DNA from: an uncultured virus (IMG/VR IMGVR_UViG_3300025804_000224)
Lineage: Duplodnaviria > Heunggongvirae > Uroviricota > Caudoviricetes
Reading direction: 5' to 3' (one strand)
DNA length: 20,000 nt
IMG/VR virus record: IMGVR_UViG_3300025804_000224
How positions within the stretch are numbered: position 1 is the first letter of the stretch; each line of letters opens with the position of its first letter. Made by a program: the position numbers and the translations under genes. Below, piece after piece: positions 820 through 19,626 of the stretch. Below the pieces are notes generated by a model. The model saw only the letters and a program-made list of their open reading frames with translations, had not been told where the DNA came from and searched no databases.

Positions 820-1286
820 GTTGGGAATTATCATCTGATGCATATAATGTACTGACTGAGAATGTTATAGTAACTGACTTATATCTAATAGCTACTAATG
901 TAGGTGTAAGGTCAATCACTCATAGACTTAAACCTAGGTCAGTGACTGCAGATAATGGATATCTTACTTTTAATCTAATTGACTTAGATATAACTTTGAC
1001 TCAGGGTAATGAATGTTTCTGGGACTTAGATTTATATTGTAAGGTAAACTATAAAGATACTGATTATAAGATAGCTACACTTAAGAGATTCCAGAGTATA
1101 GACCATAATCTATTTATGTCATATATGGGTATCAATATATTTTATGTAGATTTTAGGTCAATCAAGTGGAGTGAGATACTCGATTTAAGTCAGGAAGGTA
1201 AGGATACATCGATGCACATAATAGATTTTATTAAGATGCATAATACTGGTGTATCAAAATCTGAGATAAATAAATATAGATTATGA
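816..1286 (+). CDS. Hypothetical phage protein (156 aa), possibly tail/baseplate-associated by context
   Basis: ORF with ATGA overlaps at both ends (816-819 and 1283-1286) and typical codon usage. Function is a guess from context only. Confidence 0.75.
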   Translation: MSWELSSDAYNVLTENVIVTDLYLIATNVGVRSITHRLKPRSVTADNGYLTFNLIDLDITLTQGNECFWDLDLYCKVNYKDTDYKIATLKRFQSIDHNLFMSYMGINIFYVDFRSIKWSEILDLSQEGKDTSMHIIDFIKMHNTGVSKSEINKYRL

Positions 1287-2071
1287 GTAATAAGACACTA
1301 GATGAACTTAGGGAGGTAATGTATGTTAACTCCCGTAAGAATAGAGCTAATACTATAGATCCACCTGATGTATTCACTACAATGAAGGATGCATTTGACT
1401 TAGTCTATAGTAAGTCTGAGATAGATAATTTACTTGAACATATAGATGACCCTATTGAGTTAACTAATGGTGACCTTATTAACTTAATTGATAATAGTAA
1501 GCTAAATGTAGGTAGGCATTATAAAGTAACTAATTATAGACCTAGTGGGTCAAAGTATTATGACATACTACTTTTAGCTACTTCACCTAACTCACTTAAC
1601 TCAAATGGATTAGCTATTAAGTCAGATAATGGACCTAGTATAACTGGTATTAACTCATTTAGTATAGTCTACTCAATAAAATCGAATAAAGTTACTAGAC
1701 TAACTGATGAGTATGGAAATGTAGCTGACTTTGATTTCAAGTGTATAAAAGTAGATGACTCAGATTACTTATTTAGTTCATCATCTATATCTAGTGGAAA
1801 TACAATACTCAACTCAACTGGAATTAAATTCTTAGGTGACTGTCATAATAATATAGTTAAGGGATGCAGTAATATTACCATAGATAATGTATCTAACTCT
1901 ATAATTATAGGTAGCTCTAATCTAAGTTTGATTGACTGTGATAGACTTAGTGTATCAGCTAAGAATGAAGGTGAGGTATTAAGTTTCTCCAATAAAGTAA
2001 GTGAGTCAATTGGAAATAACTCTAAAGGTGACGTAGTTGAGATAAATATATTTGACTCAATATTTATATAA
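1283..2071 (+). CDS. Putative short tail spike/fibre protein: shared N-terminal module, 'DEYGN..DFK' domain, short beta-helix-like C-terminus
   Basis: N-terminus has PPDVFTTMKDAFDL, paralogous to 4892, 5890 and 11545. LTDEYGNVADFDFK matches 4892 (MRDEYGNEANYDFK). The C-terminus has N/I/S/G-rich periodic segments (CHNNIVKGCSNITIDNVSNSIIIGSSNLSL). Confidence 0.65.
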   Translation: MSNKTLDELREVMYVNSRKNRANTIDPPDVFTTMKDAFDLVYSKSEIDNLLEHIDDPIELTNGDLINLIDNSKLNVGRHYKVTNYRPSGSKYYDILLLATSPNSLNSNGLAIKSDNGPSITGINSFSIVYSIKSNKVTRLTDEYGNVADFDFKCIKVDDSDYLFSSSSISSGNTILNSTGIKFLGDCHNNIVKGCSNITIDNVSNSIIIGSSNLSLIDCDRLSVSAKNEGEVLSFSNKVSESIGNNSKGDVVEINIFDSIFI

Positions 2072-4891: not shown

Positions 4892-5863
4892 ATGGCACGT
4901 ACAATAGACCAGTTAAAGACTGCAATGTTAAATAATGCAGCTAAACAGATAGGTCAGAAAATTACTCCATCAGATGTATTTAGTACAATGAAGGAGGCAT
5001 TTGACCTCTACTATACTAAGGCTGAAGTCCAGACTATAGAGACTACTATAAACAATAGGATAGATGCACTTCAGTATGGTAGAGTAATGACTAATGCTCA
5101 GTTAGCTTCAGCTATCTCATCTAAGTCATTGAAGAAAGGTGAGCTAATTGAGATACCTTATCCAGCTAAACATAAATTCTCTATACTACTTGTAGCTACA
5201 TCAACTAATACAGTTAGTGGGGTAGGTTATGCTATAAATAACTTAGATACTACCTATTATAGTGGAGTAGACATGACTAAGTGGCTACTTGGAGTTACTA
5301 TAAATGACTCAGGTATTCCTACTATCACATATATGAGGGATGAGTATGGTAATGAGGCTAACTATGACTTTAAGAATAGTTCAACTAATTCATCTACCAT
5401 AACTTATGCACTCCAATATACTGATAGTAAAGGTAATGTATCAGATGCTTCACTTACAGGTAAAGCTAAGAATAATAAGTTATTTGACTCAGTAGGCAAT
5501 AAAGGTATAGCTATAAATACTACCTCATCTATTATCAATAATGAAATATATGGAGGAGTAACTTCTACTGAGGGACTTATTAACTGTAAGATTTATGGCA
5601 CTGGAAATATATTGAAGGGAGCTACTAATCTTGAGTTATATGGAGATAATAACTCATTTGCTAGTCAGGTAACTAATGCTGAGGTAGAGGGAAATAACAT
5701 AACCTTCACTGATACGTCAGCAATCTATAATCTTAAGGTATTGAGTCCAAGTGATACTGCATGTAGTTTATCTGGACTTACAGGTAAGGTATTTAAGTTA
5801 GTAGGTAGGAACTCTAATGGTAATATAGTTATAGGTAAGCCATTAGATCAGATCTTCTCATAA
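4892..5863 (+). CDS. Putative tail spike/fibre protein, paralogue of 1283..2071
   Basis: Shared N-terminal PSDVFSTMKEAFDL, FSILLVATSTN and MRDEYGNEANYDFK motifs, and a beta-helix-like C-terminus (NNEIYG, NCKIYG, NLELYG, NAEVEG). Confidence 0.7.
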   Translation: MARTIDQLKTAMLNNAAKQIGQKITPSDVFSTMKEAFDLYYTKAEVQTIETTINNRIDALQYGRVMTNAQLASAISSKSLKKGELIEIPYPAKHKFSILLVATSTNTVSGVGYAINNLDTTYYSGVDMTKWLLGVTINDSGIPTITYMRDEYGNEANYDFKNSSTNSSTITYALQYTDSKGNVSDASLTGKAKNNKLFDSVGNKGIAINTTSSIINNEIYGGVTSTEGLINCKIYGTGNILKGATNLELYGDNNSFASQVTNAEVEGNNITFTDTSAIYNLKVLSPSDTACSLSGLTGKVFKLVGRNSNGNIVIGKPLDQIFS

Positions 5864-5889: not shown

Positions 5890-8800
5890 ATGGCTAATAT
5901 AAATGATTTAAAGAATAGCATGCTTACTAATGCATCTAAGGCTAATTATAGTACAATTAGTCCATCTGATGTATTTAGTACAATGAAGCAGGCATTTGAT
6001 TTATATAGTACTACTGAAGAAATAGCAGCTAAGTACTATAATAAGTCAGAACTTGATGTCAGGGTAGCTACTGCAGATAAGTTAGGTTTCATTAAGATAG
6101 GTTATACTCAGTCTGGAGCTAACTATCCTATTCAGTTAGATAAAGATAATAAAGCTTATGTAACCTTAGCTCTAGGTGAGACTGATGTAACTGCATATAA
6201 AGGTAGCTCAGGTAAAGCTCTAGCTAATAATTTATCAAGTCACGTAGCTAATAAATCTAATCCTCATGGAGTTACTAAAGCTCAAGTAGGATTAGGTGAT
6301 GTAGCTAATACTGGAGATAGTTCTACTCCAGTTAGTGGAGGTACTACTAAATTTACTACAGGTGGAGCTTACTCCATGAAGACTGACTTACAGAATAGTA
6401 TTAATACTAAGGCTGCTAAGACTAATACAGTTAATGGACATCAGATAGGGAGTAACGTATCTATACCTACTATAGATAACTCTACTAAGCTTACCAATCA
6501 GGACCTTAATACTCTCCATGGTAATGGAGGTTTCTATTATGCACCTGGAGGTAATACCTGTACTAATATGCCATCTGGAGTTATTTCATTTGGACTCGTA
6601 GTTAGTAGAGGAGCTGGTGGATGGTGGAGTCAGACACTAACTGGTAATGATGGTAAGATATATTATCGTCAGTGGGATGCTACTAAGTGGACTCCATGGG
6701 TTAGAGTTTATACTACTGGAGATAAGCCATCTAAGTCAGATGTAGGTCTCAGTAATGTAGTAAATACAGGTGACTCAGCAACTCCAGTTAGTGGAGGTAC
6801 TACTAAGTTTACTACAGGTGGAGCTTACTCGATGAAATCAGAGTTACAAGCTAGTATTAACACTAAGGCTAATAACTCAACTACAGTCAACGGACACCCT
6901 CTCACTAGTAACGTTACTGTAACTAAGGCTGATGTAGGTCTAGGTAATCTTACAAATGATTCTCAGGTAAAGAGGTCAGAGATGGGAGCTAAGAGTGGAG
7001 TAGCTACCCTTGATGCTAATGGACTTATACCTAGCTCACAGTTACCTTCCTATGTAGATGACGTATTAGAGTATGCATCTCTAAGTAAATTCCCGACTAA
7101 AGGTGAGACAGGTAAGATATATGTAGCAACTGATACTAACCTCACTTATAGATGGAGTGGAACTAGCTATGTAGAGATTAGTAAATCTCTAGCTCTAGGT
7201 ACTACATCTAGTACAGCTTATGCAGGTAACTTAGGAGCTCAGTTAAGGACTGACCTCAATAGTCATACATCTAGTAAGTCTAACCCACATGGAGTTACTA
7301 AAGCTCAGGTAGGATTAGGTAATGTAGCTAACCTAGATCAGAGTAAGGCTATTAAGTCACTCAGTCAGTCAGGTATTACATATACAGCTACTTATGTAGA
7401 TGGAACTACAGGTACTGCATTCACTACCGATGGATCTACTATAATTAATAGCCTGAGTACAGGTACCGCAGTACCAGGAGACTCAGATTACTTTATATCT
7501 CAATATGTAGGTGGAGGTACTACCACTACCTCATATCATCGTAGACCTATATCTACCTTATATAGCTATATAAAGAGTAAGCTATCTAAGTCTGACTTAA
7601 TAAGTATTCTTGGATTCACTCCTATTAGTAGTGGTGATGGTAAGTTCTCTAATTACCTACCTCTATCTGGAGGTACCATGACTGGAAGGTTAACTATGAA
7701 GTCTAACCCTATCTGGATTCAAGGTGGATCAGATGCAGGTGGAGATGTAAATAGGATGACCCTTACCTCAGGGATGCCTACTGAGATTAAGTATAATGGA
7801 GGTAAGAGAGGTACTGTAATTTACTCTAATGCCATAGCATTTGGAGATCCATTAAACGGTAACTCTAATAATGATGCAGGATGGATTCGTCACTTAGAGA
7901 CTACAGCTAACTCAGGAATACTAGAAATAGCTACTGGAGATGATGGTAATGAAGGTATAGTATTCAGAAGGTATAATAATAGTAATAATGTATCAACTGA
8001 GGTTGTTGTACCTAATGCCTCAGGTACATTAGCTCTTACATCTCAGATACCAACTGTACCTAGTTCACTTAAGAATCCTAATGCACTCACTATCTCACTT
8101 AATGGTACATCTCAGGGAGCTTATGATGGTAGTTCAGCTAAGAGTATTAACATTACTCCAGGCAGTATAGGTGCAGCTGCAGCCAGTCACTCTCACTCTT
8201 ACTTACCTCTTAATGGAGGTACCATGACTGGAGATATAAACTTTGCAGCTACCGGAACTACAGGCACCTCTAAGAAGATAGTATTTAGTGGATCTACCGA
8301 TGGAGCTCAAATCTACTATAATGTACCTACCTCAGATCAAGGTAACTTGGTACTTAATATGGTAGATGATACTAATGCATATATCCAATTTGCATATAAT
8401 GGTAAAGTTGGTTCCTATATATCTCCATCAGATGGTATGTATCATGGTAAGGCTACATCAGCTAGTGTAGCTGACTCAGTAGCTTGGAGTAATGTGTCAG
8501 GTAGACCTAGCTCTATGCCATCTAGTGACGTATCTGCATGGGCTAAAGCATCGACTAAGCCATCTTATTCATGGAGTGAGATAACAAGTAAACCAGGTAC
8601 TTTTACTCCATCAGCTCATACACATAATTCATTAACTAACTTAGGTGCATATACAGCTAGTGCACCTACATCCAATACTAAGTATTTAGGTAATGGATTG
8701 AGTTGGGCTACCTTATATAGTGGTGGAGGTCCATGTGCTTATGGTAATATACTTGAGTTATATGGAACTGGAGCTGGTCAGTTATGTATGGAGTGGAGTG

Positions 8801-9948
8801 GAGGTCAGAATGCAGCTGGTGACTCTAATGTAGGTAGACTCTATTATAGATCTAAACGTGACATTGTTAATGGATGGACTACATGGAAAACTGTAGCTTG
8901 GACTTCTGATATACCTGGAGTTGCTACTACTGGAGCTAATGGACTAATGTCAGCTGCTGATAAGAGTAAGCTCAATGGCATAGCAGCTGGAGCTCAGGTA
9001 AATACCATTACAGGTATTAAAGGTAGTGCTGAGTCATCTTACCGTACAGGTCAAGTTAATATTACTCCAGCTAACTTAGGTATTACTGTAGTTAATAATA
9101 CAGCTGACTCAGCTAAGCATGTAGCATATGCAGCTACTGCAGGTTCAGCTACTGATAATACTAAGTTACCTCTATCTGGAGGTACCATGACAGGAAGTAT
9201 TATTTTTAGTAACTCTGGAACCTCATTAAGAGGTATCCAAGGAACTATGGGAGATAATGACCAATGGCGAGTTATGGGTGGTGCAACTGAAAGTAATTCA
9301 GGTTATCTTGAAATAGCTACTAGTGACGATGGTGATGAACCTATCTATGTAAGACAATATAATACTGGAACATTTGGAAATCTAGTTCGCACAGCTACTT
9401 TGTTAGATGGTAATGGTAATACATCATTCCCAGGTAGCATATCTGAGGGAGGTACTCTCTTATCTAATAAATATCAACCTAAAGGTAGCTATGCACCTGC
9501 ATCCCATACCCACAATTTCCTTAAAGGTAGTCAGTCATCCTCAGTTAAGGCAGCTACCTGTCTAGCTAATGATTCAAATATATCATTAACTGTAGGTTTA
9601 TGGGCTACAACTGATGCAGGTTTCTCTACTCAGTGGGGATCAGTACTTGATCTTAATCCTCAAGGTGGATGGAGGGAGAGATTAGCATTCAATACTAATG
9701 GTACTATAGAGTACTGGCATGGTATTAATACTACTACTATGAGTAAAGTAGGTAACTTAGTTACTTCAAGTAATATAGGTAGTTACATACCTAATTTACC
9801 TGCATCTAAGATTACCTCAGGTACCTTTAGTGCTGATAGGATACCGTCGATTCCTAAATCTAAGATAACTGACTTCCCATCTACTGAGGAATGGACTTTC
9901 ACTTTAAGTGATGGTAGTACAGTTACTAAGAAAGTATATATAGGTTAA
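5890..9948 (+). CDS. Long tail fibre protein (1352 aa), mosaic
   Basis: G/S/T-rich with typical fibre motifs: NPHGVTKAQVGLG x2, GVATLDANGLIPSSQLPSYVDDV...IYVATDTNLTYRWSG, LPL(S/N)GGTMTG x3 and GLMSAADKSKLNGI. Two knob-like segments end in YYR...WxxW (about 6502-6729 and 8728-8910). Carries the shared N-terminal module and ends EEWTFTLSDGSTVTKKVYIG. Confidence 0.9.
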   Translation: MANINDLKNSMLTNASKANYSTISPSDVFSTMKQAFDLYSTTEEIAAKYYNKSELDVRVATADKLGFIKIGYTQSGANYPIQLDKDNKAYVTLALGETDVTAYKGSSGKALANNLSSHVANKSNPHGVTKAQVGLGDVANTGDSSTPVSGGTTKFTTGGAYSMKTDLQNSINTKAAKTNTVNGHQIGSNVSIPTIDNSTKLTNQDLNTLHGNGGFYYAPGGNTCTNMPSGVISFGLVVSRGAGGWWSQTLTGNDGKIYYRQWDATKWTPWVRVYTTGDKPSKSDVGLSNVVNTGDSATPVSGGTTKFTTGGAYSMKSELQASINTKANNSTTVNGHPLTSNVTVTKADVGLGNLTNDSQVKRSEMGAKSGVATLDANGLIPSSQLPSYVDDVLEYASLSKFPTKGETGKIYVATDTNLTYRWSGTSYVEISKSLALGTTSSTAYAGNLGAQLRTDLNSHTSSKSNPHGVTKAQVGLGNVANLDQSKAIKSLSQSGITYTATYVDGTTGTAFTTDGSTIINSLSTGTAVPGDSDYFISQYVGGGTTTTSYHRRPISTLYSYIKSKLSKSDLISILGFTPISSGDGKFSNYLPLSGGTMTGRLTMKSNPIWIQGGSDAGGDVNRMTLTSGMPTEIKYNGGKRGTVIYSNAIAFGDPLNGNSNNDAGWIRHLETTANSGILEIATGDDGNEGIVFRRYNNSNNVSTEVVVPNASGTLALTSQIPTVPSSLKNPNALTISLNGTSQGAYDGSSAKSINITPGSIGAAAASHSHSYLPLNGGTMTGDINFAATGTTGTSKKIVFSGSTDGAQIYYNVPTSDQGNLVLNMVDDTNAYIQFAYNGKVGSYISPSDGMYHGKATSASVADSVAWSNVSGRPSSMPSSDVSAWAKASTKPSYSWSEITSKPGTFTPSAHTHNSLTNLGAYTASAPTSNTKYLGNGLSWATLYSGGGPCAYGNILELYGTGAGQLCMEWSGGQNAAGDSNVGRLYYRSKRDIVNGWTTWKTVAWTSDIPGVATTGANGLMSAADKSKLNGIAAGAQVNTITGIKGSAESSYRTGQVNITPANLGITVVNNTADSAKHVAYAATAGSATDNTKLPLSGGTMTGSIIFSNSGTSLRGIQGTMGDNDQWRVMGGATESNSGYLEIATSDDGDEPIYVRQYNTGTFGNLVRTATLLDGNGNTSFPGSISEGGTLLSNKYQPKGSYAPASHTHNFLKGSQSSSVKAATCLANDSNISLTVGLWATTDAGFSTQWGSVLDLNPQGGWRERLAFNTNGTIEYWHGINTTTMSKVGNLVTSSNIGSYIPNLPASKITSGTFSADRIPSIPKSKITDFPSTEEWTFTLSDGSTVTKKVYIG
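6325..6836 (+). repeat. 56-bp direct repeat pair (6325-6380 and 6781-6836, 2 mismatches), 456 bp apart, flanking a knob-like domain
   Basis: actccagttagtggaggtactactaa(a/g)tttactacaggtggagcttactc(c/g)atgaa read at both positions; encodes TPVSGGTTKFTTGGAYSMK. Confidence 0.9.
7658..9191 (+). repeat. Three in-frame LPL(S/N)GGTMTG-coding repeats (7658-7682, 8204-8228, 9167-9191)
   Basis: tacctctatctggaggtaccatgac is identical (25 bp) at 7658 and 9167. The variant tacctcttaatggaggtaccatgac is at 8204. Confidence 0.9.
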
Positions 9949-9955
9949 ACTAATG

Positions 9956-9989
9956 AGAGTCAGAGATATGAATAATATTCTCTGACTCT
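9956..9989 (+). terminator. Stem-loop after the long tail fibre gene (terminator or mRNA stability element)
   Basis: AGAGTCAGAGA (9956-9966) / TCTCTGACTCT (9979-9989), a perfect 11-bp inverted repeat 7 nt after the stop. The U-tract is weak. Confidence 0.6.
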
Positions 9990-10036
9990 TAATCTAAAGT
10001 GATAATTAACATTAATAACAAGTAAGTTAAGATATT

Positions 10037-10470
10037 ATGTCAGTTGATTTCTCAAAGGTCACCTCAGTGAAAGTTGGGGGGTCGACATTAATAAGATTGT
10101 AGATAACTCTAATAAGGTACTATGGATACATGGGAAGTTAATTAAGTTATATATTATTGACTATACGTCTGATTTAGATTACTCTGGACCTGAACGTAAA
10201 ATAAGGATTAAAGTAGATAATACAACATATATAGCTAGTGGATCTGGTATTTCATATAGTGGAAGTCCCCAAATTACAGCTGAAAATGTATTAATGTATC
10301 CAGGAGTTCATACAGTAGAAATTATATCAACATGGGATAGTAGTTATGGAGGTGAAAATTCAGGTAATACTACCTATGTTAAATTTGATCCTAGCCACAA
10401 GACCAAATTTACTTATACTGAATCTACTAATGATTACTTCTTTGTGAATATATATCGAGTAAATAACTAA
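10037..10470 (+). pseudogene. Frameshifted (putative phase-OFF) small fibre-associated protein, paralogue of 10514 and 11042; 144 aa if one G is added to the G6 run at 10076-10081
   Basis: ATG 10037 reads MSVDFSKVTSVKVGG-STLIRL* (TAG 10100-10102). The -1 frame from 10081 reads VDINKIVDNSNKVLWIHG...VNIYRVNN* and is open to TAA 10468-10470. Joined, the sequence aligns with MDFSKVTSIKVGGVNITKITDKSGKVLW of 11042. Confidence 0.9.
10076..10081 (+). repeat. G6 homopolymer tract (out-of-frame state)
   Basis: aaagtt-GGGGGG-tcgacat. Confidence 0.9.
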
Positions 10471-10489
10471 TCTTATTAATACATAATCT

Positions 10490-10514
10490 TAACTTAGTTA
10501 ATATAACTAAGTTA
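10490..10514 (+). promoter_or_regulatory. Inverted repeat overlapping the translation start of 10514
   Basis: TAACTTAGTTA (10490-10500) ATA TAACTAAGTTA (10504-10514); the final A is the A of ATG. AT-rich, so weak stability. Confidence 0.4.
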
Positions 10515-11008
10515 TGGATATATCAACTAGTAAAATAACCTCAATTAAAATAAATGGATCTGAGATAAATAAGATAGTAGACAGTAAGGGTAATGTATTA
10601 TATTATAATCCTCCATTCAATCCAGGAGATTATGACTGTGCGATTAGAATAACCGATCCAAGTTATAATAGTATACATTTAAGTATATTGATTAGTCTGT
10701 CTAAGAATGGAAAATCTACAATTGCATCTAACTGGACAGCAGTAATAACACCTGATGGATCCCTTACAAGTTCATATGAACCTTTAGGTATGCCAATAGA
10801 TGACTTTATTGAAATTGGATATTTTTCAGCTAACTATATAGGAGTAAATCAAAATTGGCACAAAAGGTCTAATGATCAGGGATCAATAAGATTTGATGGT
10901 TTTAGTTACTCTACTTGCGAGGTGTATTATGATGATAGGAGATACAATTTATCTAAATCTAAAGAATATATGTTCGATCAGTCAGTATCTAAAGCTATCT
11001 ATAAATAA
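10514..11008 (+). CDS. Small fibre-associated protein (putative tip adhesin), conserved N-terminus and variable C-terminus, no poly-G tract
   Basis: N-terminus SKITSIKINGSEINKIVDSKGNVLY is homologous to both neighbours. The remainder is unrelated to them and aromatic-rich. Confidence 0.75.
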   Translation: MDISTSKITSIKINGSEINKIVDSKGNVLYYNPPFNPGDYDCAIRITDPSYNSIHLSILISLSKNGKSTIASNWTAVITPDGSLTSSYEPLGMPIDDFIEIGYFSANYIGVNQNWHKRSNDQGSIRFDGFSYSTCEVYYDDRRYNLSKSKEYMFDQSVSKAIYK

Positions 11009-11041
11009 GTACATAAATATAACATTAAACTAAGTAAATAT

Positions 11042-11509
11042 ATGGATTTTAGTAAAGTCACTTCGATAAAAGTTGGGGGGGTCAACATAACTAAGATTAC
11101 TGATAAGTCAGGTAAAGTACTATGGCAACCTGGAACAATTGTATACTATACGTATTATAATCCAGATCCAAAATATGTAACTTATCTTCATGATATAAAT
11201 GTAACTCCATGGAATATACTTAAAGTATATGGAACTTGTGATCATGTTAATTATACTACTAATGTTGATCAAGATAATATTAGACATCAGGCCATTGAAA
11301 TAATAGCTAAGTCAAGATTAGAGGATCCATGGTTATATGATAAACCAATAGGATATACTAATAATAGTGTAGTATTACTAAATGCATATATACTTAATGT
11401 AGAGACTAATGAGAAGGTATTTACAACTCCATATATCGCAGGTTTACCTATTATAGATCATAAGAAGGTAATGAAATATAAAGATGGGACTGAAGTAGAA
11501 ATTAAATAA
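11042..11509 (+). CDS. Small fibre-associated protein (putative tip adhesin), in frame (putative phase-ON) through a G7 tract
   Basis: MDFSKVTSIKVGGVNITKITDKSGKVLW, with GTT GGG GGG GTC at 11072-11083. Confidence 0.8.
   Translation: MDFSKVTSIKVGGVNITKITDKSGKVLWQPGTIVYYTYYNPDPKYVTYLHDINVTPWNILKVYGTCDHVNYTTNVDQDNIRHQAIEIIAKSRLEDPWLYDKPIGYTNNSVVLLNAYILNVETNEKVFTTPYIAGLPIIDHKKVMKYKDGTEVEIK
11075..11081 (+). repeat. G7 homopolymer tract (in-frame state)
   Basis: aaagtt-GGGGGGG-tcaacat. Confidence 0.9.
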
Positions 11510-11544
11510 TTATAATTAATACATATTAATTTAATTTTAATAAA

Positions 11545-13227
11545 ATGGCTAACAAATCAATCAGTGAACTTAAGTCACTAATGCTGACTAAGTCACAAAG
11601 TAAGAAGAGGAGTAGTATTTCTCCTAGTGATGTATTTAGTACAATGAAGGAGGCATTTGACCTCTTTAGTACTACTGAGGAGATGAATACTGCTATCAAT
11701 AAGGCTAAGAGTGACCTCACTACTAACCTTACCATTAAGCAAGCTACATCATCTGACCTAGGTGGTATCAAGATTGGATATACTAATACTGATACTCACT
11801 ATCAGCCAGTCGTACTTGATAATACAGGTAAGGCTTACGTATATGTAGTCAGTACACTCGAATTAGGTACTACTGCAGGTACAGCCTATGATGGTAAGTC
11901 AGGTGCTGACCTAGCTAATCAGGTTAGTAACCACATTGCTAATAAGTCTAACCCTCATGGAGTTACTAAAGCTCAAGTAGGACTCGATAACGTAGATAAC
12001 GTTAAACAGATCCCAGCTACTCAGAAAGGAGCTAAGAATGGTGTAGCTAGTCTTGATACAGATGGTATTGTACCTCTGAGTCAGTTACCTGCAGCTATGC
12101 CAGCTAGTGATGTATCAGCCTGGGCTAAGGCATCTACTAAACCAACTTATACTAAAGCTGAGGTAGGTCTAGGTAACGTAGATAACGTTAAACAGATACC
12201 TTATACTGAGAAAGGTGCAGCTGGAGGTGTAGCTTCCCTAGGTTCTGATGGTAAGGTACCTGCATCTCAGTTACCTTCCTACGTAGATGACGTAGAAGAG
12301 TTTGATAACTTAGCTTCATTCCCTGAGTCAGGTGAAGAAGGTAAGATCTATACAGCTAAAGATACCAATAAGATCTATAGATGGAGTGGTACTACATATA
12401 TAGTAATCTCTGATACTATAGCTCTAGGTGAGACTTCATCCACTGCATATGCAGGTGATAAAGGTAAGGCATTAGCAACTCAATTAGCATCCCATGTAGC
12501 TAATACTAGTAACCCTCACGGAGTAACTAAGGCTCAAGTTGGACTTGATAAGGTAGTTAACCTTGACCAGAGTAAGGCTATTAAGTCAATCAGTCGTAGT
12601 GACCTTGAGTTTACAGTTACTCACCTTGATGGTACTACTGATACATTCACTCAGAAGGATACAACTTATGCTGTAGCTACATCTACTACTGATGGTCTAA
12701 TGAGTAAGGCTGACCGTGCTAAGTTAGATGGTATCGAAGCTGGAGCTCAGGTTAATCCTAAGTCCCTACCTGCATCTGATGTCTATGATTGGGCTAAGGC
12801 TAAGACTAAGCCTACTTATACTAAGGCTGAAGTAGGTCTAGGTAATGTAGATAATACTGCAGATAAGGATAAGTCAGTTAAGCATGCTACATCAGCTGAC
12901 TCAGTTGCATGGACTGGAGTTACTGGTAAGCCTGATCTATTTACCTTTGTTACTAAGAAGGTAGGTAATACTCAGTTCACTAAGTGCTTACTCACTGATG
13001 CTGAGATGACTGCAATTTCTGCACTTGATGGAGCTCCTACTCAGGTAACTAATCTGATGTCTACATCTAATTGCTCAGCTGAACAGATTACAGCTGGATT
13101 CCTGAGTGAATGGAATAGTCTATACACTGAGGAAGATCCTATTCCACTAGCTCAGCCTAAGTGGATGTTCCCATCTGATGATGGTAACTCTCTCAACATA
13201 GCCACTATCGGAGGTATATTCGCATAA
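11545..13227 (+). CDS. Tail fibre protein (560 aa), paralogue of the N-terminal part of 5890..9948
   Basis: Shared N-terminal module, LGGIKIGYT, NPHGVTKAQVGL x2, GVASLxxDGxVPxSQLP x2, SYVDDVEEF...IYRWSG, SDVxxWAKAxTKPTYTKAEVGLGNVDN x2 and GLMSKADRAKLDGI. Confidence 0.88.
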   Translation: MANKSISELKSLMLTKSQSKKRSSISPSDVFSTMKEAFDLFSTTEEMNTAINKAKSDLTTNLTIKQATSSDLGGIKIGYTNTDTHYQPVVLDNTGKAYVYVVSTLELGTTAGTAYDGKSGADLANQVSNHIANKSNPHGVTKAQVGLDNVDNVKQIPATQKGAKNGVASLDTDGIVPLSQLPAAMPASDVSAWAKASTKPTYTKAEVGLGNVDNVKQIPYTEKGAAGGVASLGSDGKVPASQLPSYVDDVEEFDNLASFPESGEEGKIYTAKDTNKIYRWSGTTYIVISDTIALGETSSTAYAGDKGKALATQLASHVANTSNPHGVTKAQVGLDKVVNLDQSKAIKSISRSDLEFTVTHLDGTTDTFTQKDTTYAVATSTTDGLMSKADRAKLDGIEAGAQVNPKSLPASDVYDWAKAKTKPTYTKAEVGLGNVDNTADKDKSVKHATSADSVAWTGVTGKPDLFTFVTKKVGNTQFTKCLLTDAEMTAISALDGAPTQVTNLMSTSNCSAEQITAGFLSEWNSLYTEEDPIPLAQPKWMFPSDDGNSLNIATIGGIFA

Positions 13228-13286: not shown

Positions 13287-15107
13287 ATGAGTGAAATATC
13301 TAAAGTATTAAGTTACTCTAATCAGTCTAAGACTAGGGACTTTAAGAAGATTAAGCAAGCTATCCTACTCTTAGATGAAATTTTAGGTAATGAAACTAGC
13401 TCAAAATCTGACTTAAGTGAACTCAGGGATGAATTAACTAAGTTAGTTACTGATGAATGTGGTAGAGCTAAGGCATCTGAGAAGTTAAATAAAGATGCCA
13501 TTGATATACTTAATGGTGACTCCAGTATTGATGGATCAGTGAGGAAATATATCTCTGACCTTATTGGAGGTGCACCTGAGGCATATGATACACTCAAGGA
13601 GATAGCTGACTATATCAATAATGATGAGACCGTTGATGCAGCTCTAACTAAGTCATTAAGTGATAATAAGATTAAGATCGATAAAGTCAGCTCTGATCTT
13701 GATTCAACTAAGACTGAGCTTACTGAACTTATTAACTCGAGTAAGACTGAGGCATTAAATGCTAGTAAGGCTAATACTGACTCAATAAATAAGATTAACA
13801 ATGACCTTACTACATTTGCTAAGACTACTGACTTAGCTGACTATGCAACTCACGAAGACCTCTCGGCTATTAAAGTTCCTGATGTATCTAACTTAGTCAG
13901 TAATGATTCACTCACAACTACATTAGCTTTATATGCTAAGAAATCTGAGTTACCTGCAGTACCTGACCTCACTCCCTATGTGACTAAGGAGAATCTTACT
14001 ACAGAATTAGATAGTTACGCTAAGAAGACTGAAATAACTACTCCTGATCTTACTCCATATGTAACTAAGGAGAATCTAACTACTGAGTTAGGTGAGTATG
14101 CTAAGAAGACTGAGTTACCTACAGTCCCAGACCTTACTACTTATGTTACTAAGGATAGTCTTACTACCGAATTAGGTAATTACTCTAAGAAGACTGACCT
14201 TACTCAATACGTCACTAGTGATTCACTCACCTCTACCTTAGCTACATATGCTAAGAAGTCAGATATAGTAACTCCTGACCTTACTCCATATGTAACTAAG
14301 GATAATCTTACTACTGAATTAGGTAATTATGCTAAGAAGACTGAGGTAACTACTCCTGACCTTACATCTTACGTAACTAAGGATAATCTTACCACTGAAC
14401 TATCTACATATGCTAAGAAATCTGAGCTACCTACAGTTCCTGACCTTACCTCCTATGTAACCAGTGACTCATTAACATTGACTTTAGCTACATATGCTAA
14501 GAAGACTGATATCCCTAAGGATGAGATATACATAATCTCATATAATCCGTTAGCTGGTAATATAGTAAGTGGGTCATATACAGAAGCTGAGGAAGCTATT
14601 AAAGCTGGTAAAGTAGTATTGCTTAAATTAGTCGATAATGGAGATGAGGTAACTACTAATAATGTATTACTAGCTAGTGTAGATGGAGATTCCTTATGTT
14701 TCTATGGAGTCACTGACTCTAAATCTAACACTAAGCAGTTAACTATAAATAAGATTACCTTAAGTAAAGATGGTAATATAGATGATGAATCAATAACATT
14801 TGGGTCAAGTGAAGAAACTAACTTACAGGTAAATGTAAGTGGTGCTGAATGCACTGTAGATTTCAGCAATATCGATACCAATAAACTATATGCAGTAATA
14901 GATAACAGTAAAAATAGTACTGACATTACTACGATTAACTTCACCAAACAGGATAGTGACGGTAATGAAGTAAGTGTAAGTCCAGTAACTATTAAGTGGA
15001 GTGATGCTAAGCTCACTACAGTTAAAGCTAATACTACTACAATAGTTAAGTTCGATGTAATAGATAATGTTATATACTGTACTGACATTAAGTCATATAC
15101 AGCTTAG
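13287..15107 (+). CDS. Fibrous virion protein (606 aa) with coiled-coil N-terminus, APEAYDTLKEIAD motif and 8 tandem repeats
   Basis: LIGGAPEAYDTLKEIADYI resembles the APEALDTLKEL motif common in phage fibre proteins. Repeats of PDLTxYVTKxxLTTELxxYAKK, then a beta-rich C-terminal domain. Confidence 0.75.
   Translation: MSEISKVLSYSNQSKTRDFKKIKQAILLLDEILGNETSSKSDLSELRDELTKLVTDECGRAKASEKLNKDAIDILNGDSSIDGSVRKYISDLIGGAPEAYDTLKEIADYINNDETVDAALTKSLSDNKIKIDKVSSDLDSTKTELTELINSSKTEALNASKANTDSINKINNDLTTFAKTTDLADYATHEDLSAIKVPDVSNLVSNDSLTTTLALYAKKSELPAVPDLTPYVTKENLTTELDSYAKKTEITTPDLTPYVTKENLTTELGEYAKKTELPTVPDLTTYVTKDSLTTELGNYSKKTDLTQYVTSDSLTSTLATYAKKSDIVTPDLTPYVTKDNLTTELGNYAKKTEVTTPDLTSYVTKDNLTTELSTYAKKSELPTVPDLTSYVTSDSLTLTLATYAKKTDIPKDEIYIISYNPLAGNIVSGSYTEAEEAIKAGKVVLLKLVDNGDEVTTNNVLLASVDGDSLCFYGVTDSKSNTKQLTINKITLSKDGNIDDESITFGSSEETNLQVNVSGAECTVDFSNIDTNKLYAVIDNSKNSTDITTINFTKQDSDGNEVSVSPVTIKWSDAKLTTVKANTTTIVKFDVIDNVIYCTDIKSYTA
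13878..14513 (+). repeat. Eight imperfect coding tandem repeats (mostly 27-28 aa, one 22 aa)
   Basis: Eight Y(A/S)KK-containing units. cctgaccttact...tatgtaactaagga...actactga...tatgctaagaag recurs at the DNA level. Confidence 0.9.
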
Positions 15108-15182: not shown

Positions 15183-15473
15183 TTACTCAGCTATAGTTGA
15201 GAGATACTTAATCATTGAATCCACTAATTTAAACTTAGTATAACCTCTTACTGAATTAACTAACTCATTAGATATTCCATTAAATTCACCTAAGGAATCA
15301 ATGAACTTATCTATCTTAATATCTAACTGATTACTAATTACATTAGGGTCATATCCTCTGACCTTATCATAATTATCTTCAAGGAACTTATTAACCTTAA
15401 TAGTTAACTCACTCCAATCAGAAGTCATAGATTTAACTTTATTCTTACTCTCGACTTCAAATCTCTTAGCCAT
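15183..15473 (-). CDS. Hypothetical protein (96 aa; alternative start at 15428 gives 81 aa)
   Basis: Last ORF of the minus-strand operon. ATG 15473 has the typical AT-rich context; ATG 15428 forms an ATGA overlap with the upstream stop. Confidence 0.65.
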   Translation of the reverse strand: MAKRFEVESKNKVKSMTSDWSELTIKVNKFLEDNYDKVRGYDPNVISNQLDIKIDKFIDSLGEFNGISNELVNSVRGYTKFKLVDSMIKYLSTIAE

Positions 15474-15895
15474 ATAATTAATTTATTATATCTTACCTTA
15501 AACTTAAATGACTGAATAAAGTGAGCTCCAGGTACAGGTGAGATAGGATACCTAGAATATACACTAAATCCAAATATCTCAGGACATGGTATAGAATTAG
15601 TTAAGTAATCAGGCACTCTCCCATCCCTATCACATATATAAGATAGGTCATTGTAGAGTTTAATAAGATCCTTCTTACTGACTCTACCTGACCTAAATCC
15701 ATTAGGAACTACTATTACCTCATTTAGAAAATCAGGTAACATAGTCCATATACCATCTTGAGTAAATTCAAGACTACCTATATTATTCTCATCTTTATTA
15801 ACTCTGATTAATAAGTCATTCTTAGTCAAATCAGAGTTAATAAAGTTGTATAGCTCAATAATATAAGCTAGACCTGACCTATTTATCTGAGCCAT
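15425..15895 (-). CDS. Hypothetical protein (156 aa)
   Basis: Starts 2 nt after the stop of the decarboxylase gene. No motif recognised. Confidence 0.7.
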   Translation of the reverse strand: MAQINRSGLAYIIELYNFINSDLTKNDLLIRVNKDENNIGSLEFTQDGIWTMLPDFLNEVIVVPNGFRSGRVSKKDLIKLYNDLSYICDRDGRVPDYLTNSIPCPEIFGFSVYSRYPISPVPGAHFIQSFKFKVRYNKLIIWLRDLKSRVRIKLNL

Positions 15896-15897
15896 AC

Positions 15898-16917
15898 CTA
15901 ATATTTAAAATTATATCTAATCCAGTCTACTGTCTTAGCTATTCCATCCCTAAACTCAGTAACTGGAGCCCAACTAAGTCTATCCATAGCTTTAATTGTA
16001 TCGGGTCTACGTCTCTGAGGCTCACCCTCTAATGGAGCTAAGTGAACTATCTCAGATTTAGAACCTAGATAAAACTTGATAGTCTCAGCTAACTCATTAA
16101 TAGTATGCATAGCTGAGTCACTACCATTACCTAGGTTAACTGGAGTATATACATCTGACTCCATTAACTTAATCAATCCATCAACTACGTCATCTACATA
16201 ACAGAAGCATCTGAACTGATTACCATCTCCATATACAGTAATTGGAGCTCCAGTTAATGCCTGATGTACGAATGTAGGAATTACTCTATCATCAGTACAG
16301 TTAGGTCCATATACATTGAATAGACGAGCTATATGACAGAATGGAGTATCTGACTGATGATTAGCTATATAACATAAAGTCTCAGCTCCACGTTTACCTT
16401 CATCATAACATGCCCTAGGTGACTGAGTATTAACATTACCAAAGTAACTCTCTGACTGAGGTATCTCTAATGGGTCTCCATAAATCTCTGAAGTAGAGGT
16501 CTCTAGTAACTTACAGTCATCAGTACCATACTCCTTAGTTACTCGAATCATATTAGTGATTCCAAGAACTGAAGTCATGAATGTGAACTCAGGATTAGCT
16601 GAGTATAGTTTAACTGAAGCTGGCGATGCGAGATTATAGATTCTATTTACTTTAATTATCTCACCTGGATAAGAATCCATAATCTTATTGAATAACTTAT
16701 TCAATTGAGAATTTAACTGACTCCAGTTAGTAATATCACAGTTGATGAATCCTACCTTATTACCTGAAATAAGGTCAGCGATATACTTAGGAGTACCTGT
16801 AGTAATCAAGTTATCGATAACTACTAAAATTAACTTAGGGTCATTCTTGACTAACTTTCTTACTAGATTGGAGCCTACAAATCCAGCTCCACCTGTTACT
16901 AATGTGATTTTAATCAT
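15898..16917 (-). CDS. uxs: UDP-glucuronic acid decarboxylase (UDP-xylose synthase), extended SDR family
   Basis: LVTGGAGFVGS NAD-binding motif, IDNLITTG, IYNLASPAS, TSTSEIYGDP, PQSESYFGNVN, PRACYDEGKRGAETL (YxxxK), ARLFNVYGP, TVYGDGNQFRCFCYVDD, PVNLGN and RRRPD, all characteristic of UXS. Confidence 0.9.
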   Translation of the reverse strand: MIKITLVTGGAGFVGSNLVRKLVKNDPKLILVVIDNLITTGTPKYIADLISGNKVGFINCDITNWSQLNSQLNKLFNKIMDSYPGEIIKVNRIYNLASPASVKLYSANPEFTFMTSVLGITNMIRVTKEYGTDDCKLLETSTSEIYGDPLEIPQSESYFGNVNTQSPRACYDEGKRGAETLCYIANHQSDTPFCHIARLFNVYGPNCTDDRVIPTFVHQALTGAPITVYGDGNQFRCFCYVDDVVDGLIKLMESDVYTPVNLGNGSDSAMHTINELAETIKFYLGSKSEIVHLAPLEGEPQRRRPDTIKAMDRLSWAPVTEFRDGIAKTVDWIRYNFKY

Positions 16918-16927
16918 TTTACTTAGT

Positions 16928-17833
16928 TTATTTATTATTTACTTTAGTTGAGATTAAATGACCATATTGATTATAGTCATAGATATTCTTAGTTACTCTT
17001 AGTTTACCGAACTTAGATATCTTACTGAGGTATACACTATTCTGAGGTAATCTCAGTTTACATACCTCAGGTGAACTTACTCCTAGTTTAGATTTAGCTA
17101 TAAAGTCATTTAATACTACTGAGATATTAAGTGACCTATAGTCAGACCTTACCCATAGATAGTTAGCTATTATAGAAGTTAGTTTAAGTCTTGAGTCAGC
17201 CCAATCTATGAACTCACCATTAATCAATTCTGACTCAAGTAGCTGATGTACTATATAGATATCAAATATGAATAAGAATAATTTTTGAGTTCCATCAATT
17301 AAGTTTTCTATTGGGACCTCTCGGTAAGTTGAGTCATACTTATTCAATGATAGTGAGATACCACTCTCTGAGTTATCATATATCTTGATTGACTCAGCTC
17401 CATATCCAATTAGGTGATCTGAATTATTATACTCACATATAAAGTTAGCTAATAAATCAATATTGACTAGATGGAATCCACTATTGACCTCCATAAGATA
17501 GTTATTAGAGTCATTTGATGCTAAACTTATGAACTCTTTAAATACCTTATAGTACTTATTAGGTACATCTGGATTTAAGTATAACCTGAGTTTAATAAAG
17601 TTATCTTCAATTAACTTAAGGAACTCCAATTTAGATGACTTACTGACCTCTAGGTAATCTCCTATTGTATTATAACTCATACCATTAGGTACATTATCGA
17701 TAAATAAGTACCAGTCACATGAGTTAGTTCCGACTAATTGGGTATAGAGGTTATATATTGAGTCAAGTAACTCAGGATTAATAGTTAACTTCCCATCATT
17801 AACTTTAATACAGGTAAATAGGTGAAGTTTCAT
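16928..17833 (-). CDS. Hypothetical protein, probable degenerate GT-A/GT2-like paralogue lacking DxD
   Basis: Same length and motif order as 17835..18716 (DG near the N-terminus, LDSI, WYLFIDN, YLMEVNSG in place of FYEIDSDD, DHLIGYG). Similarity is weak and judged by eye. Confidence 0.45.
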   Translation of the reverse strand: MKLHLFTCIKVNDGKLTINPELLDSIYNLYTQLVGTNSCDWYLFIDNVPNGMSYNTIGDYLEVSKSSKLEFLKLIEDNFIKLRLYLNPDVPNKYYKVFKEFISLASNDSNNYLMEVNSGFHLVNIDLLANFICEYNNSDHLIGYGAESIKIYDNSESGISLSLNKYDSTYREVPIENLIDGTQKLFLFIFDIYIVHQLLESELINGEFIDWADSRLKLTSIIANYLWVRSDYRSLNISVVLNDFIAKSKLGVSSPEVCKLRLPQNSVYLSKISKFGKLRVTKNIYDYNQYGHLISTKVNNK

Positions 17834-17834
17834 A

Positions 17835-18716
17835 TCATTTATTTCTAGATTTACTCAATTCATATGGGTCAAACTTAATAAACTTAGACTTATCCTTAGT
17901 ATATCTATAAAATCCACCTCCATTTACGTATAGATATCCTAATTCCTTAAGTTCATTAAGTAGATATTCAGAGTACTCCATATCATATTCATCATGTATC
18001 TGACCTTCATGAATGTGATAGTTAGTGAGATTAGTACAGAGTGCACCAATTCTATAAGGAGTTAATGGATGCTCCTTATTAAACTTAGATACCTCTATTG
18101 TACATAGAGTATCCTCAGGTACTGCATTCGACTTAAATACTAGGTCACCTGAGACATATAGAGTATACAGGAATCTAGCTATGTCATATCCAAACATAAA
18201 TCCCCATATAGTTTGAATATCAGTAGTGATATACCTACGCTGAGATATAAACTTATTTAAGTCCCAAGTCCATGTATTCCACATAGGATGACTCTTAGGT
18301 ACATTATATCCAAATGCAAGTAAGTCACAGTCGAATTTATCTGAGTTAACTATAGCCTTAAATGCATTAGTATCATATATAGTATCATCTGAGTCAATTT
18401 CATAAAACATATATTCATGAGTCCAAGGATTATTAATGATAAATCTATACCACTCCATTCGAGCTGGACCCATCCATAACTGTTTAGGATAGGGAAGTAT
18501 TATCAAGTCATCACCTACTGGAGATGAGGCAAGTTCATCTATCCAGTTAATTGAATCCTTATTTAGATTATCTGTATTAGAGATTAGTAATACCCATTTA
18601 ACATTACCTTTATTCTCTAATACTACCTTACTTATTGACTTAATAGTATCCTCAGATTCATCCCAGGTACCATCTGACCTTACGTAACTTCTATTTAAGA
18701 TAATTACCTTATTCAT
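17835..18716 (-). CDS. Glycosyltransferase, GT-A fold, family 2-like
   Basis: GT2 motif order is preserved: TIKSI, WVLLISN, MGPARM (cf. G..ARN), FYEIDSDD (DxD, aa 108-111), CDLLAFGY, IWGFMF, PEDTL (ED motif) and YHIHEGQ. Confidence 0.75.
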   Translation of the reverse strand: MNKVIILNRSYVRSDGTWDESEDTIKSISKVVLENKGNVKWVLLISNTDNLNKDSINWIDELASSPVGDDLIILPYPKQLWMGPARMEWYRFIINNPWTHEYMFYEIDSDDTIYDTNAFKAIVNSDKFDCDLLAFGYNVPKSHPMWNTWTWDLNKFISQRRYITTDIQTIWGFMFGYDIARFLYTLYVSGDLVFKSNAVPEDTLCTIEVSKFNKEHPLTPYRIGALCTNLTNYHIHEGQIHDEYDMEYSEYLLNELKELGYLYVNGGGFYRYTKDKSKFIKFDPYELSKSRNK

Positions 18717-18720
18717 AATA

Positions 18721-19626
18721 TTAACTTATTTGCACCCATCTACCTGAGTTTACACCTAACTCAGTAGAGGTAGGGGAGTTATATCTAATCTCTCCCGTAA
18801 CCTTCAATCTGGTATCCTTAAGTAGCTCATCAGGAATATCCTGACTAACATACTCTTCATATGACTTATATTGAATTCTAATCATATTAGAAATTATCAT
18901 TCCTACCTTGAACTTAACTTCATAATGATGACTATCATTCCATGTATTAATAGTTCTAGCTAAGTAACATTCATAATACTTATCTGATATGTCACCTATC
19001 TTAAATATAGGCAATAACTTAGACTCCATTAAGGTATTAAATAACTTAAGTACCTTATATGAGTACATGAACTGGAACTTAGGTGAGCTATACTTTAGTA
19101 AGTAATCCTTACTTATTCTAACACTACTAGATGAGGTAGAATAAGTATTATTCTTAGTCCAACTAAACTTACCCATTGATGGAGTTAATCTATCTGATTG
19201 TACTCCATATGAGAGTAAGTCACTATTAATGAATGTATGACCATAGATCACTAGAGATACTACATTAAGGAACTTAGTAATCTCCCAATTAGGTCTCAAG
19301 TCTAGAAAGTAAGATTTATCTGATATATCACCTTTCTCTACTTTATCAGTTACGAACTTATATAGTACAGCTCTACCTTGAGATTCACTCAACTCCGAGT
19401 CTGAAGTAATCATCTCTGAACTCTCAGTAGACCTAAATACATAAGTCTTACTCTTATCCACATTAGATAGTCCACTTACCAATACAATCCAATGAACTTT
19501 TGACCTATCGGATTCTTTAACGAATGATTTAAGTAACTTTCTGAATGATTTCTCAGTCTTCTTACTTAAATCCCAATTCCCATCTTTATCTATATGGGAG
19601 TGAGTTAGGAATATTAATGAATTCAT
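18721..19626 (-). CDS. Degenerate GT2-like paralogue of 17835..18716 lacking DxD/ED motifs
   Basis: Motif pairs (this ORF / 17835): DGNWDLSKKTEKSF / DGTWDESEDTIKSI; VHWIVLVS / VKWVLLIS; SQGR / GPAR; FLDLRPNW / FYEIDSDD; DLLSYG / DLLAFG; WNDSH..FKVG / FNKEH..YRIG. Confidence 0.6.
   Translation of the reverse strand: MNSLIFLTHSHIDKDGNWDLSKKTEKSFRKLLKSFVKESDRSKVHWIVLVSGLSNVDKSKTYVFRSTESSEMITSDSELSESQGRAVLYKFVTDKVEKGDISDKSYFLDLRPNWEITKFLNVVSLVIYGHTFINSDLLSYGVQSDRLTPSMGKFSWTKNNTYSTSSSSVRISKDYLLKYSSPKFQFMYSYKVLKLFNTLMESKLLPIFKIGDISDKYYECYLARTINTWNDSHHYEVKFKVGMIISNMIRIQYKSYEEYVSQDIPDELLKDTRLKVTGEIRYNSPTSTELGVNSGRWVQIS

Follow-up and report, generated by a model that had tools for sequence, protein, structure and literature searches.

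Does a gene that is broken by a single missing base, in a run of G beside the tail-fibre genes of a phage, represent a switch or a loss? This question is raised by a stretch of 20,000 nucleotides from an uncultured virus of the Caudoviricetes (IMG/VR record IMGVR_UViG_3300025804_000224), the whole of which is referred to as the window. By gene content, the window resembles a phage structural region, with tightly packed genes, most of which are orphans. Three small paralogous genes, named genes 1, 2 and 3 in map order, sit between two tail-fibre genes, fibre 1 and fibre 2, and the sole gap in the gene map (9949-10513) falls where gene 1 is hidden. An initial annotation of the sequence had described gene 1 as broken at a tract of six G residues (G6) and gene 3 as intact with seven (G7), and interpreted the pair as a stochastic ON/OFF switch of tail-fibre tip adhesins. 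Our analysis indicates that a slippage frameshift at the DNA level in gene 1 is very probably real. We tentatively read the tract as a slippage-prone and reversible DNA-level switch, kept because it is mutable and with gene 1 now in the OFF state, although we give this reading somewhat less than even weight.

The frameshifted gene 1 and its paralogues

The gap in the gene map was found to hold a gene broken by a frameshift of one nucleotide at the G6 tract, as initially annotated. At the junction AAAGTT-G6-TC, frame 0 is left with 21 codons, and one extra G would give gene 1 a total of 144 codons. The -1 frame from 10081 continues for 129 codons without a stop, and the open stretch around it spans 140 codons between two stops. 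When 9949-10513 was shuffled 5,000 times, an open frame of 129 codons was never reached, and the maximum was 122. In codon usage, the body of gene 1 scores 0.23 bits per codon, compared with 0.26 for gene 2 and 0.32 for gene 3, and the other five frames of the body score from -0.05 to -1.19. Because its open length lies beyond that of the shuffles and its codon usage is like that of genes 2 and 3, the hidden frame of gene 1 is real coding sequence.

Gene 3 carries AAAGTT-G7-TC in frame. The expectation that a slip in either direction would stop gene 3 within a few codons also held, since a G6 tract leads to TAA after two more codons and a G8 tract to a stop after four more. A change of one unit in either tract therefore switches the reading frame, as at a contingency locus. 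The position of the tract at codons 14-15 of gene 1 means that a slip truncates nearly the whole protein.

Alignment shows that genes 1 to 3 are alike only over the first ~30 residues, with no detectable protein likeness beyond. In a BLASTP comparison of gene 2 with gene 3, 18 of 38 positions are identical, in the N-terminal part only (expectation value, E, 3e-6). The DNA of genes 1 and 3 shows 75-76% identity over the 36 bases before the tract and the 58 bases after it. The spacing of this direct repeat is 999 before the tract and 1000 after it, and genes 1 and 3 therefore differ by exactly one base at the run. The Gly-Gly pair encoded by the tract occupies codons 14-15 in gene 1 and codons 12-13 in gene 3. 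The two tracts had been placed at an identical codon position; the place is indeed homologous, but it is not numerically the same. Likewise, the paralogy of genes 1 and 3 stands, but the picture of two paralogues does not, for gene 2 lies between them as a third, with AAT GGA at the homologous place. In the shared part of genes 1 and 3, synonymous differences are present in 8 of the 20 codons for identical residues and the other 12 are unchanged. A single silent change would suffice to remove the G run.

Homopolymer runs in the window

Only two G runs of at least five are present in the 20,000 bases, and both are the tracts of genes 1 and 3, in agreement with the initial annotation that these are the only G runs longer than four. 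G4 occurs four times, and C runs of at least five are absent from the window. Counting any base, six runs of at least five were observed where 112 are expected from composition, a ratio of 0.05 or a depletion of ~20-fold. The same ratio in 29 other phage loci ranges from 0.41 to 1.46. When the synonymous codons of 16 open reading frames (ORFs) were shuffled 300 times, 21.2 A-runs (minimum 13) and 14.0 T-runs (minimum 6) were expected, and two of each were observed. Moreover, none of the 19 Lys-Lys pairs has AAA as its first codon. Run avoidance is thus achieved partly at silent sites, by codon choice. A slippage-prone polymerase is one guess at what may lie behind the avoidance across the window.

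The two G tracts are longer than the genome background, as is typical of contingency loci. G runs of at least two, three and four number 626, 62 and 6, respectively, so that each added G beyond two was kept in ~1 of 10 cases. Extrapolation of these counts gives ~0.06 expected G runs of at least six, vs two seen. The coding of glycine is also unusual at the tracts. In the 16 ORFs, with gene 1 left out, GGT and GGA make up 399 of the 420 Gly codons, as had been noted before, and GGG only 13 (3%). Among the 33 Gly-Gly pairs, GGG-GGG occurs once, in gene 3. As a separate observation on composition, the observed/expected ratios of dinucleotides in the window are low for CG (0.21), AA (0.75) and TT (0.67), and high for CT (1.56), AG (1.33) and TA (1.30).

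A proposed slippage switch and its alternatives

Comparison with a related phage bears on the working length of the tract. One public sequencing run, named X1 here, is the sole public run with any of the stretch, and holds 0.06 of the sampled words, as contigs. A contig of 2,061 letters from X1, with a depth of 31, was aligned to the window and represents a related phage. It shares three junction blocks with the window (Table 1). Between blocks 1 and 2, 336 bases are exchanged for 363 other letters, and between blocks 2 and 3, 907 bases are exchanged for 459. The relative has two small genes vs three here, and their C-terminal modules are different. Its gene 1 consists of a kept start of 96 letters (32 codons) followed by a new module of 363 letters (121 codons), and measures 462 letters, or 154 codons, in frame from the ATG to the aligned stop. 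Judged from this alignment, the genes evidently behave as a cassette in which gene starts are kept and the remainder is swapped in whole codons, and the cassette proposed in the initial annotation is borne out. At the tract, the relative has one G added behind 10075 and a G to T change at 10078, which gives seven letters (six G and one T), with the exact position of the T depending on the alignment. Since the relative is in frame with seven letters, seven is the working length, and G6 in the window is a defect.

Database records were used to examine the state of the tract in closer relatives. The gene-caller product of the broken gene 1 is a fragment of 58 amino acids (aa) that starts at ATG 10294, and it is recorded on two contigs, from JGI/IMG and Logan sources. 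No full-length product of gene 1 was found among 5.8 billion proteins. The gene 3 product is also recorded on two contigs and is letter-identical. The second contig, of 10,170 base pairs, carries the same fibre genes; fibre 1 differs at 1 of 1352 residues, and the other two proteins are identical over their called lengths. Note that G6 in the second contig is deduced from gene calls and not from DNA letters. The broken state is thus found again in another assembly that differs slightly, and a chance assembly error is unlikely.

The phage that carries the tracts is uncultured and low in GC; it has four or more fibre-like genes and lacks Shine-Dalgarno motifs. Its three small genes are modular, each joining the shared N-terminal piece of ~30 residues to an unrelated C-terminal module. 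In the mechanism we propose, slippage of the polymerase is the most likely reason why one G is missing from the run of gene 1 in the DNA, with the result that translation stops after 21 codons, and gene 3, which keeps G7, would be on. The same slippage could put the lost base back. Runs of 6-7 bases are hot spots of slippage, and by analogy with the measured runs of 6-9 bases in T-even phages, a minority of the progeny should carry G7 in gene 1, or G6 or G8 in gene 3. Phage variants that differ in their sets of these proteins would then coexist in the population, and selection by the host could act on them. Slippage as the cause, its reversibility, the benefit and the role of the proteins are what we infer. 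A kept switch is favoured because the run survives in two paralogues of a run-purging genome and sits at the gene start. The gene, the frameshift and the cassette of the initial interpretation hold, and its stochastic switching and its adhesin role stay putative.

Several observations weigh against a kept switch. The run of the X1 relative is interrupted by a T and gene 2 has no run, and the pure run is therefore not conserved across the family. Conservation of the tract in related phages was part of the test that the initial annotation had set for its own refutation, and here the result is unfavourable to it. The broken gene 1 fragment and the gene 3 product are each in the same state on the two contigs, and the tract-length variation that had been envisaged was not found between these near-identical phages, as far as gene calls of two contigs can tell. 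A first-order dinucleotide model expects ~0.9 G runs of at least six. The two G runs share ancestry and therefore count as one event. As 12 of the 20 synonymous codons are unchanged anyway, the keeping of two more is unsurprising, and the argument from retention is statistically weak. Finally, the tracts of Campylobacter are given as 7-11 G in the available text of a review (PMC9311878), so G6 and G7 are at the low end.

An ordinary young pseudogene would arise if the ancestral G7 of genes 1 and 3 slipped once and gene 1 is now being lost, with no useful switching. This explanation accounts for the same state of the gene 1 fragment and the gene 3 product on two contigs, one of them near-identical, and it agrees with the fast turnover of a cassette whose gene number is not fixed (two small genes in X1 vs three). 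The X1 relative and gene 2 manage without a pure run, and an intact body of 129 codons is expected soon after any frameshift. However, silent changes have purged runs from this genome to a level ~10-fold lower than synonymous shuffling predicts, and yet GGG GGG G persists in two paralogues, even though GGG is a rare Gly codon and 8 of the 20 synonymous sites nearby differ. The risky run is also still present in gene 3, which is intact. The pseudogene is the main rival, but on balance we consider it somewhat unlikely. It is also conceivable that gene 1 is expressed without any change of the DNA, if some ribosomes shift by -1 on GGG GGG or if an extra G is added on the run by RNA polymerase, so that its product would be made at a low fixed level relative to gene 3. 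A tRNA in the P site on GGG 10079-10081 could re-pair perfectly with GGG 10078-10080, and the next codon in frame 0, TCG, is rare (15 of 647 Ser codons) and could cause a pause. The intact body of gene 1 conforms to such recoding, and the window-wide avoidance of runs would fit a slippage-prone polymerase. Nevertheless, we hold recoding to be improbable. Frame 0 (GTT GGG GGG TCG) contains no X XXY YYZ heptamer, and only a slip of a single tRNA re-pairs fully. No downstream structure is apparent, as the fold of 10082-10140 has -5.6 kcal/mol with a z-score of +0.50, 130 of 200 shuffles are as good, and the same stretch of gene 3 folds with a z-score of +0.10. The shift is not conserved, with the X1 relative in frame, and a shift 14 codons into the gene yields no useful second product. 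The -1 ribosomal slippage that had been listed as an alternative thus loses ground on heptamer, downstream structure and conservation alike.

A sequencing or assembly error, by which the phage truly has G7 in gene 1, had been listed as well. Homopolymers are the classic site of such errors, and the window has no other run of at least six as an internal control. However, the truncated call of 58 aa comes from two contigs of two kinds of source, the full-length product is absent from the 5.8 billion proteins, and all other genes of the window are unbroken and tightly packed. We regard an error as very improbable.

The reversible slippage switch has counterparts in known systems. Hypermutable polyG tracts that create phenotypic diversity have been described for phages of Campylobacter (Sorensen et al. 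2021, Cell Rep 35:109214). With these and the contingency loci of T2 and T4, the mechanism is not new for phages. As far as the available account of the Campylobacter phages goes, their G runs reportedly lie in phage genes of the host-recognition region, where a slip of one base toggles the gene and gives mixed progeny, much as proposed here. Unlike in that system, which belongs to a different host group, the runs here are shorter (6-7), and a tblastn search with gene 3 revealed no sequence relation. The tracts of the Fletchervirus type are said to be in genes for receptor-binding proteins; the genes here lie between fibre genes.

Short runs are also mutable in T-even phages. According to the available text of a preprint, the run of six A's in T4 rIIA reverts ~10,000x above point mutation, 131 of 168 runs of at least six in T2 show indels in deep reads at a mean rate of ~3e-4, and the T7-like genera are run-poor groups with 0.02-0.07 runs per kb (bioRxiv 10.1101/2025.10.21.683753). 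The contingency loci of T2 and T4 described by Gomez, Barrick and Waters (the agt A-run and the A6 of rIIA) resemble the present case as short runs of at least six in phage coding regions that are reversible hot spots of frameshift. In that account, though, the runs are many and mostly A/T, occur in all gene classes and are under-represented in tail-fibre genes (0.77x), whereas the 20 kb examined here contain just two runs of at least six, both of G and both at one homologous place in two paralogues beside fibre genes.

Homopolymers in the 5' coding region switch the contingency loci of Neisseria, Campylobacter and Haemophilus. Those bacterial loci differ from the phage case in that they encode surface proteins of cells, their G/C tracts are longer in the classic examples, and their switching has been measured. 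In Listeria, the 5' poly(A) tract of inlA yields a product of 8 aa, and its rate of variation exceeds that of point mutation ~1,000-fold (PMC2831843); it is comparable in lying near the 5' end and in its very short off product (8 aa in inlA, 21 aa here). The present locus is unrelated in sequence to the Campylobacter phage tracts, the T-even loci and inlA alike. Other host-range switches of phages include inversion of the Mu G segment and diversity-generating retroelements, as listed in the available text of one source (PMC12823448). They share with the present locus that alternative versions of fibre-associated proteins are encoded side by side, but the change here is one base in a run. No invertase, inverted-repeat crossover site or reverse transcriptase was seen in the window, and none emerged when 17 proteins were scanned against Pfam and PHROGs.

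The distinctive feature of this locus is a combination: runs are purged genome-wide, and two G runs survive at one homologous site of two paralogues within a fibre cassette that shuffles. If these runs switch, homopolymer-based bet-hedging of host range would extend from Campylobacter and T-even phages to an unrelated, uncultured gut-type phage, in an unusually clean case, since nearly all other runs are gone and the two left could be read as selected. Purging across the genome vs local retention would also make a simple screen for such switches in metagenomic phages from sequence only. If the runs do not switch, the locus is an ordinary fresh pseudogene in a fast-shuffling fibre cassette. A bolder extension, which we think unlikely, is that the phage purged nearly all homopolymers, perhaps because its own replication or transcription slips easily, and kept the two G runs, at the 5' ends of two paralogous fibre-accessory genes, on purpose as a minimal two-bit switch for the exchangeable modules of its virions, with the conserved gene starts also serving as crossover points for module exchange between phages.

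The small proteins and their gene neighbourhood

The three small proteins matched no family in Pfam, PHROGs or NCBIfam. A tblastn search of 50,697 phage records gave no match for gene 3, and in a word-indexed search of 5.8 billion proteins genes 2 and 3 matched only themselves and gene 1 nothing. Relatives of the small genes were absent from viral_contigs (searched by protein, DNA pattern and alignment), from metagenome_contigs (DNA pattern and fibre N-terminus) and from genome_contigs. A tblastn search with the three proteins on 29 fetched phage loci gave nothing below E 0.09. Among 1.84 billion representatives, HMMER returned for gene 3 itself and three long repeat proteins of 961, 713 and 1642 aa; these three matches were judged spurious because the score is summed over repeats (3-7 stretches each). 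The neighbouring fibre genes used as bait recovered shared fibre domains only. In an unrelated viral contig of 98 kb (L005, 6575-7585), the ORF after a fibre gene begins with an N-G-x-x-V-x-K motif that bears a faint likeness to the small genes. Their N-terminal piece may thus be part of a broader class of motifs that has no annotation.

Structural comparisons were similarly uninformative. A sequence search of the PDB with the three proteins gave nothing significant, the best match being a plant lectin chain (3r0e_A) to gene 2 with E 0.19, and the ESM Atlas gave nothing above chance level. AlphaFold models made without an alignment were unusable, with predicted local distance difference test (pLDDT) values of 37.3 (gene 3) and 35.3 (body of gene 1). 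The predicted complex of the fibre 1 C-terminus with the gene 3 protein, in three copies each, scored 0.01. The term "tip adhesin" is thus a guess from gene position, as no family, fold or homologue was found for the three proteins. Tail-fibre assembly or tip proteins such as T4 gp38 and the Tfa proteins of Mu and P2 are encoded just after fibre genes. The small genes resemble them in lying directly downstream of a fibre gene and in combining a conserved part with an exchanged variable part, but differ in having no match in Pfam, PHROGs, NCBIfam or PDB sequences. The small proteins are probably fibre-associated, as an accessory binding module or an assembly factor, because of their position between fibre genes, their conserved start with an exchangeable rest, and their block-wise swapping together with fibre ends.

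Table 1. Positions in the window of the small-gene cassette, its flanking fibre genes and the blocks shared with the X1 relative
Feature	Position	Strand	Remarks
Tail-fibre gene 1 (1352 aa)	5890..9948	+	Immediately precedes the cassette; matches PHROG families of tail fibres and tail proteins, best E 3.8e-19
Strong hairpin between fibre 1 stop and gene 1	9954..9991	+	RNA fold
Gene 1 as written	10037..10102	+	ATG 10037-10039, 21 codons, TAG 10100-10102
G6 tract, gene 1	10076..10081	+	One G below the in-frame length
Gene 1 body, -1 frame	10081..10470	+	129 codons and TAA 10468-10470
Gene 2 (164 aa)	10514..11008	+	Paralogue; AAT GGA in place of the G run
Gene 3 (155 aa)	11042..11509	+	Intact paralogue, 155 codons
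G7 tract, gene 3	11075..11081	+	In-frame length
Tail-fibre gene 2 (560 aa)	11545..13227	+	Directly downstream of the cassette; 35 PHROG families matched
Junction block 1	9863-10131	+	Fibre 1 end (28 codons), spacer and gene 1 start (32 codons); in 269 bases, 10 letters differ and 1 gap occurs
Junction block 2	10468-10581	+	Stop of gene 1, spacer and gene 2 start (23 codons); 7 letters differ, no gap
Junction block 3	11489-12151	+	Gene 3 end, spacer and fibre 2 start (~200 codons); in 663 bases, 46 letters differ and 6 gaps occur

The two fibre genes are 54% identical over the N-terminal ~150 aa of fibre 1. The best PHROG match of fibre 2 is a family of unknown function (E 1e-30), followed by tail collar fibre and tail fibre families from E 2e-27. 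A third gene that matches many PHROG tail-fibre families is located at 13287-15107 (606 aa). An N-terminal motif, P-[SP]-D-V-F-[ST]-T-M-K-x-A-F-D-L at residues ~24-42, is common to four proteins of the window (1283-2071, 4892-5863, 5890-9948 and 11545-13227) and is weaker in 13287-15107. It is probably a common anchor by which several fibre-like proteins would be attached to one virion. The X1 contig jumps from 12151 in fibre 2 to sequence like 8572-8661 in fibre 1, and thereby "goes back 3580"; this joint points to domain shuffling between fibre 1 and fibre 2.

Possible signals were also observed around the gene starts. The region 9945-10040 folds with -24.5 kcal/mol and a z-score of -4.09, and none of 200 shuffles folds as well. 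The hairpin within it has a stem of 13-16 base pairs right after the fibre 1 stop, with no T run behind, and may be a terminator or an RNA-end structure. No Shine-Dalgarno motif is present at the gene 1 start, which has an AT-rich context, or at the 16 other listed starts. A CTAAGT / TAAGGTAAG-like word recurs 3-30 bases upstream of several starts, in AT-rich leaders without Shine-Dalgarno motifs, namely those at 10037, 10514, 11042, 13287, 15473(-) and 16917(-). This word may be a promoter or translation signal. A scan for promoters and terminators gave sites no more frequent than in shuffles.

On the opposite strand, the block 15183-19626 (-) encodes an NAD-dependent sugar epimerase/dehydratase at 15898-16917 (Pfam E 1e-43), together with three orphan proteins of ~300 aa. 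Two of these three, 17835-18716 and 18721-19626, are alike at their N-termini. The block may constitute a glycan-modifying module.

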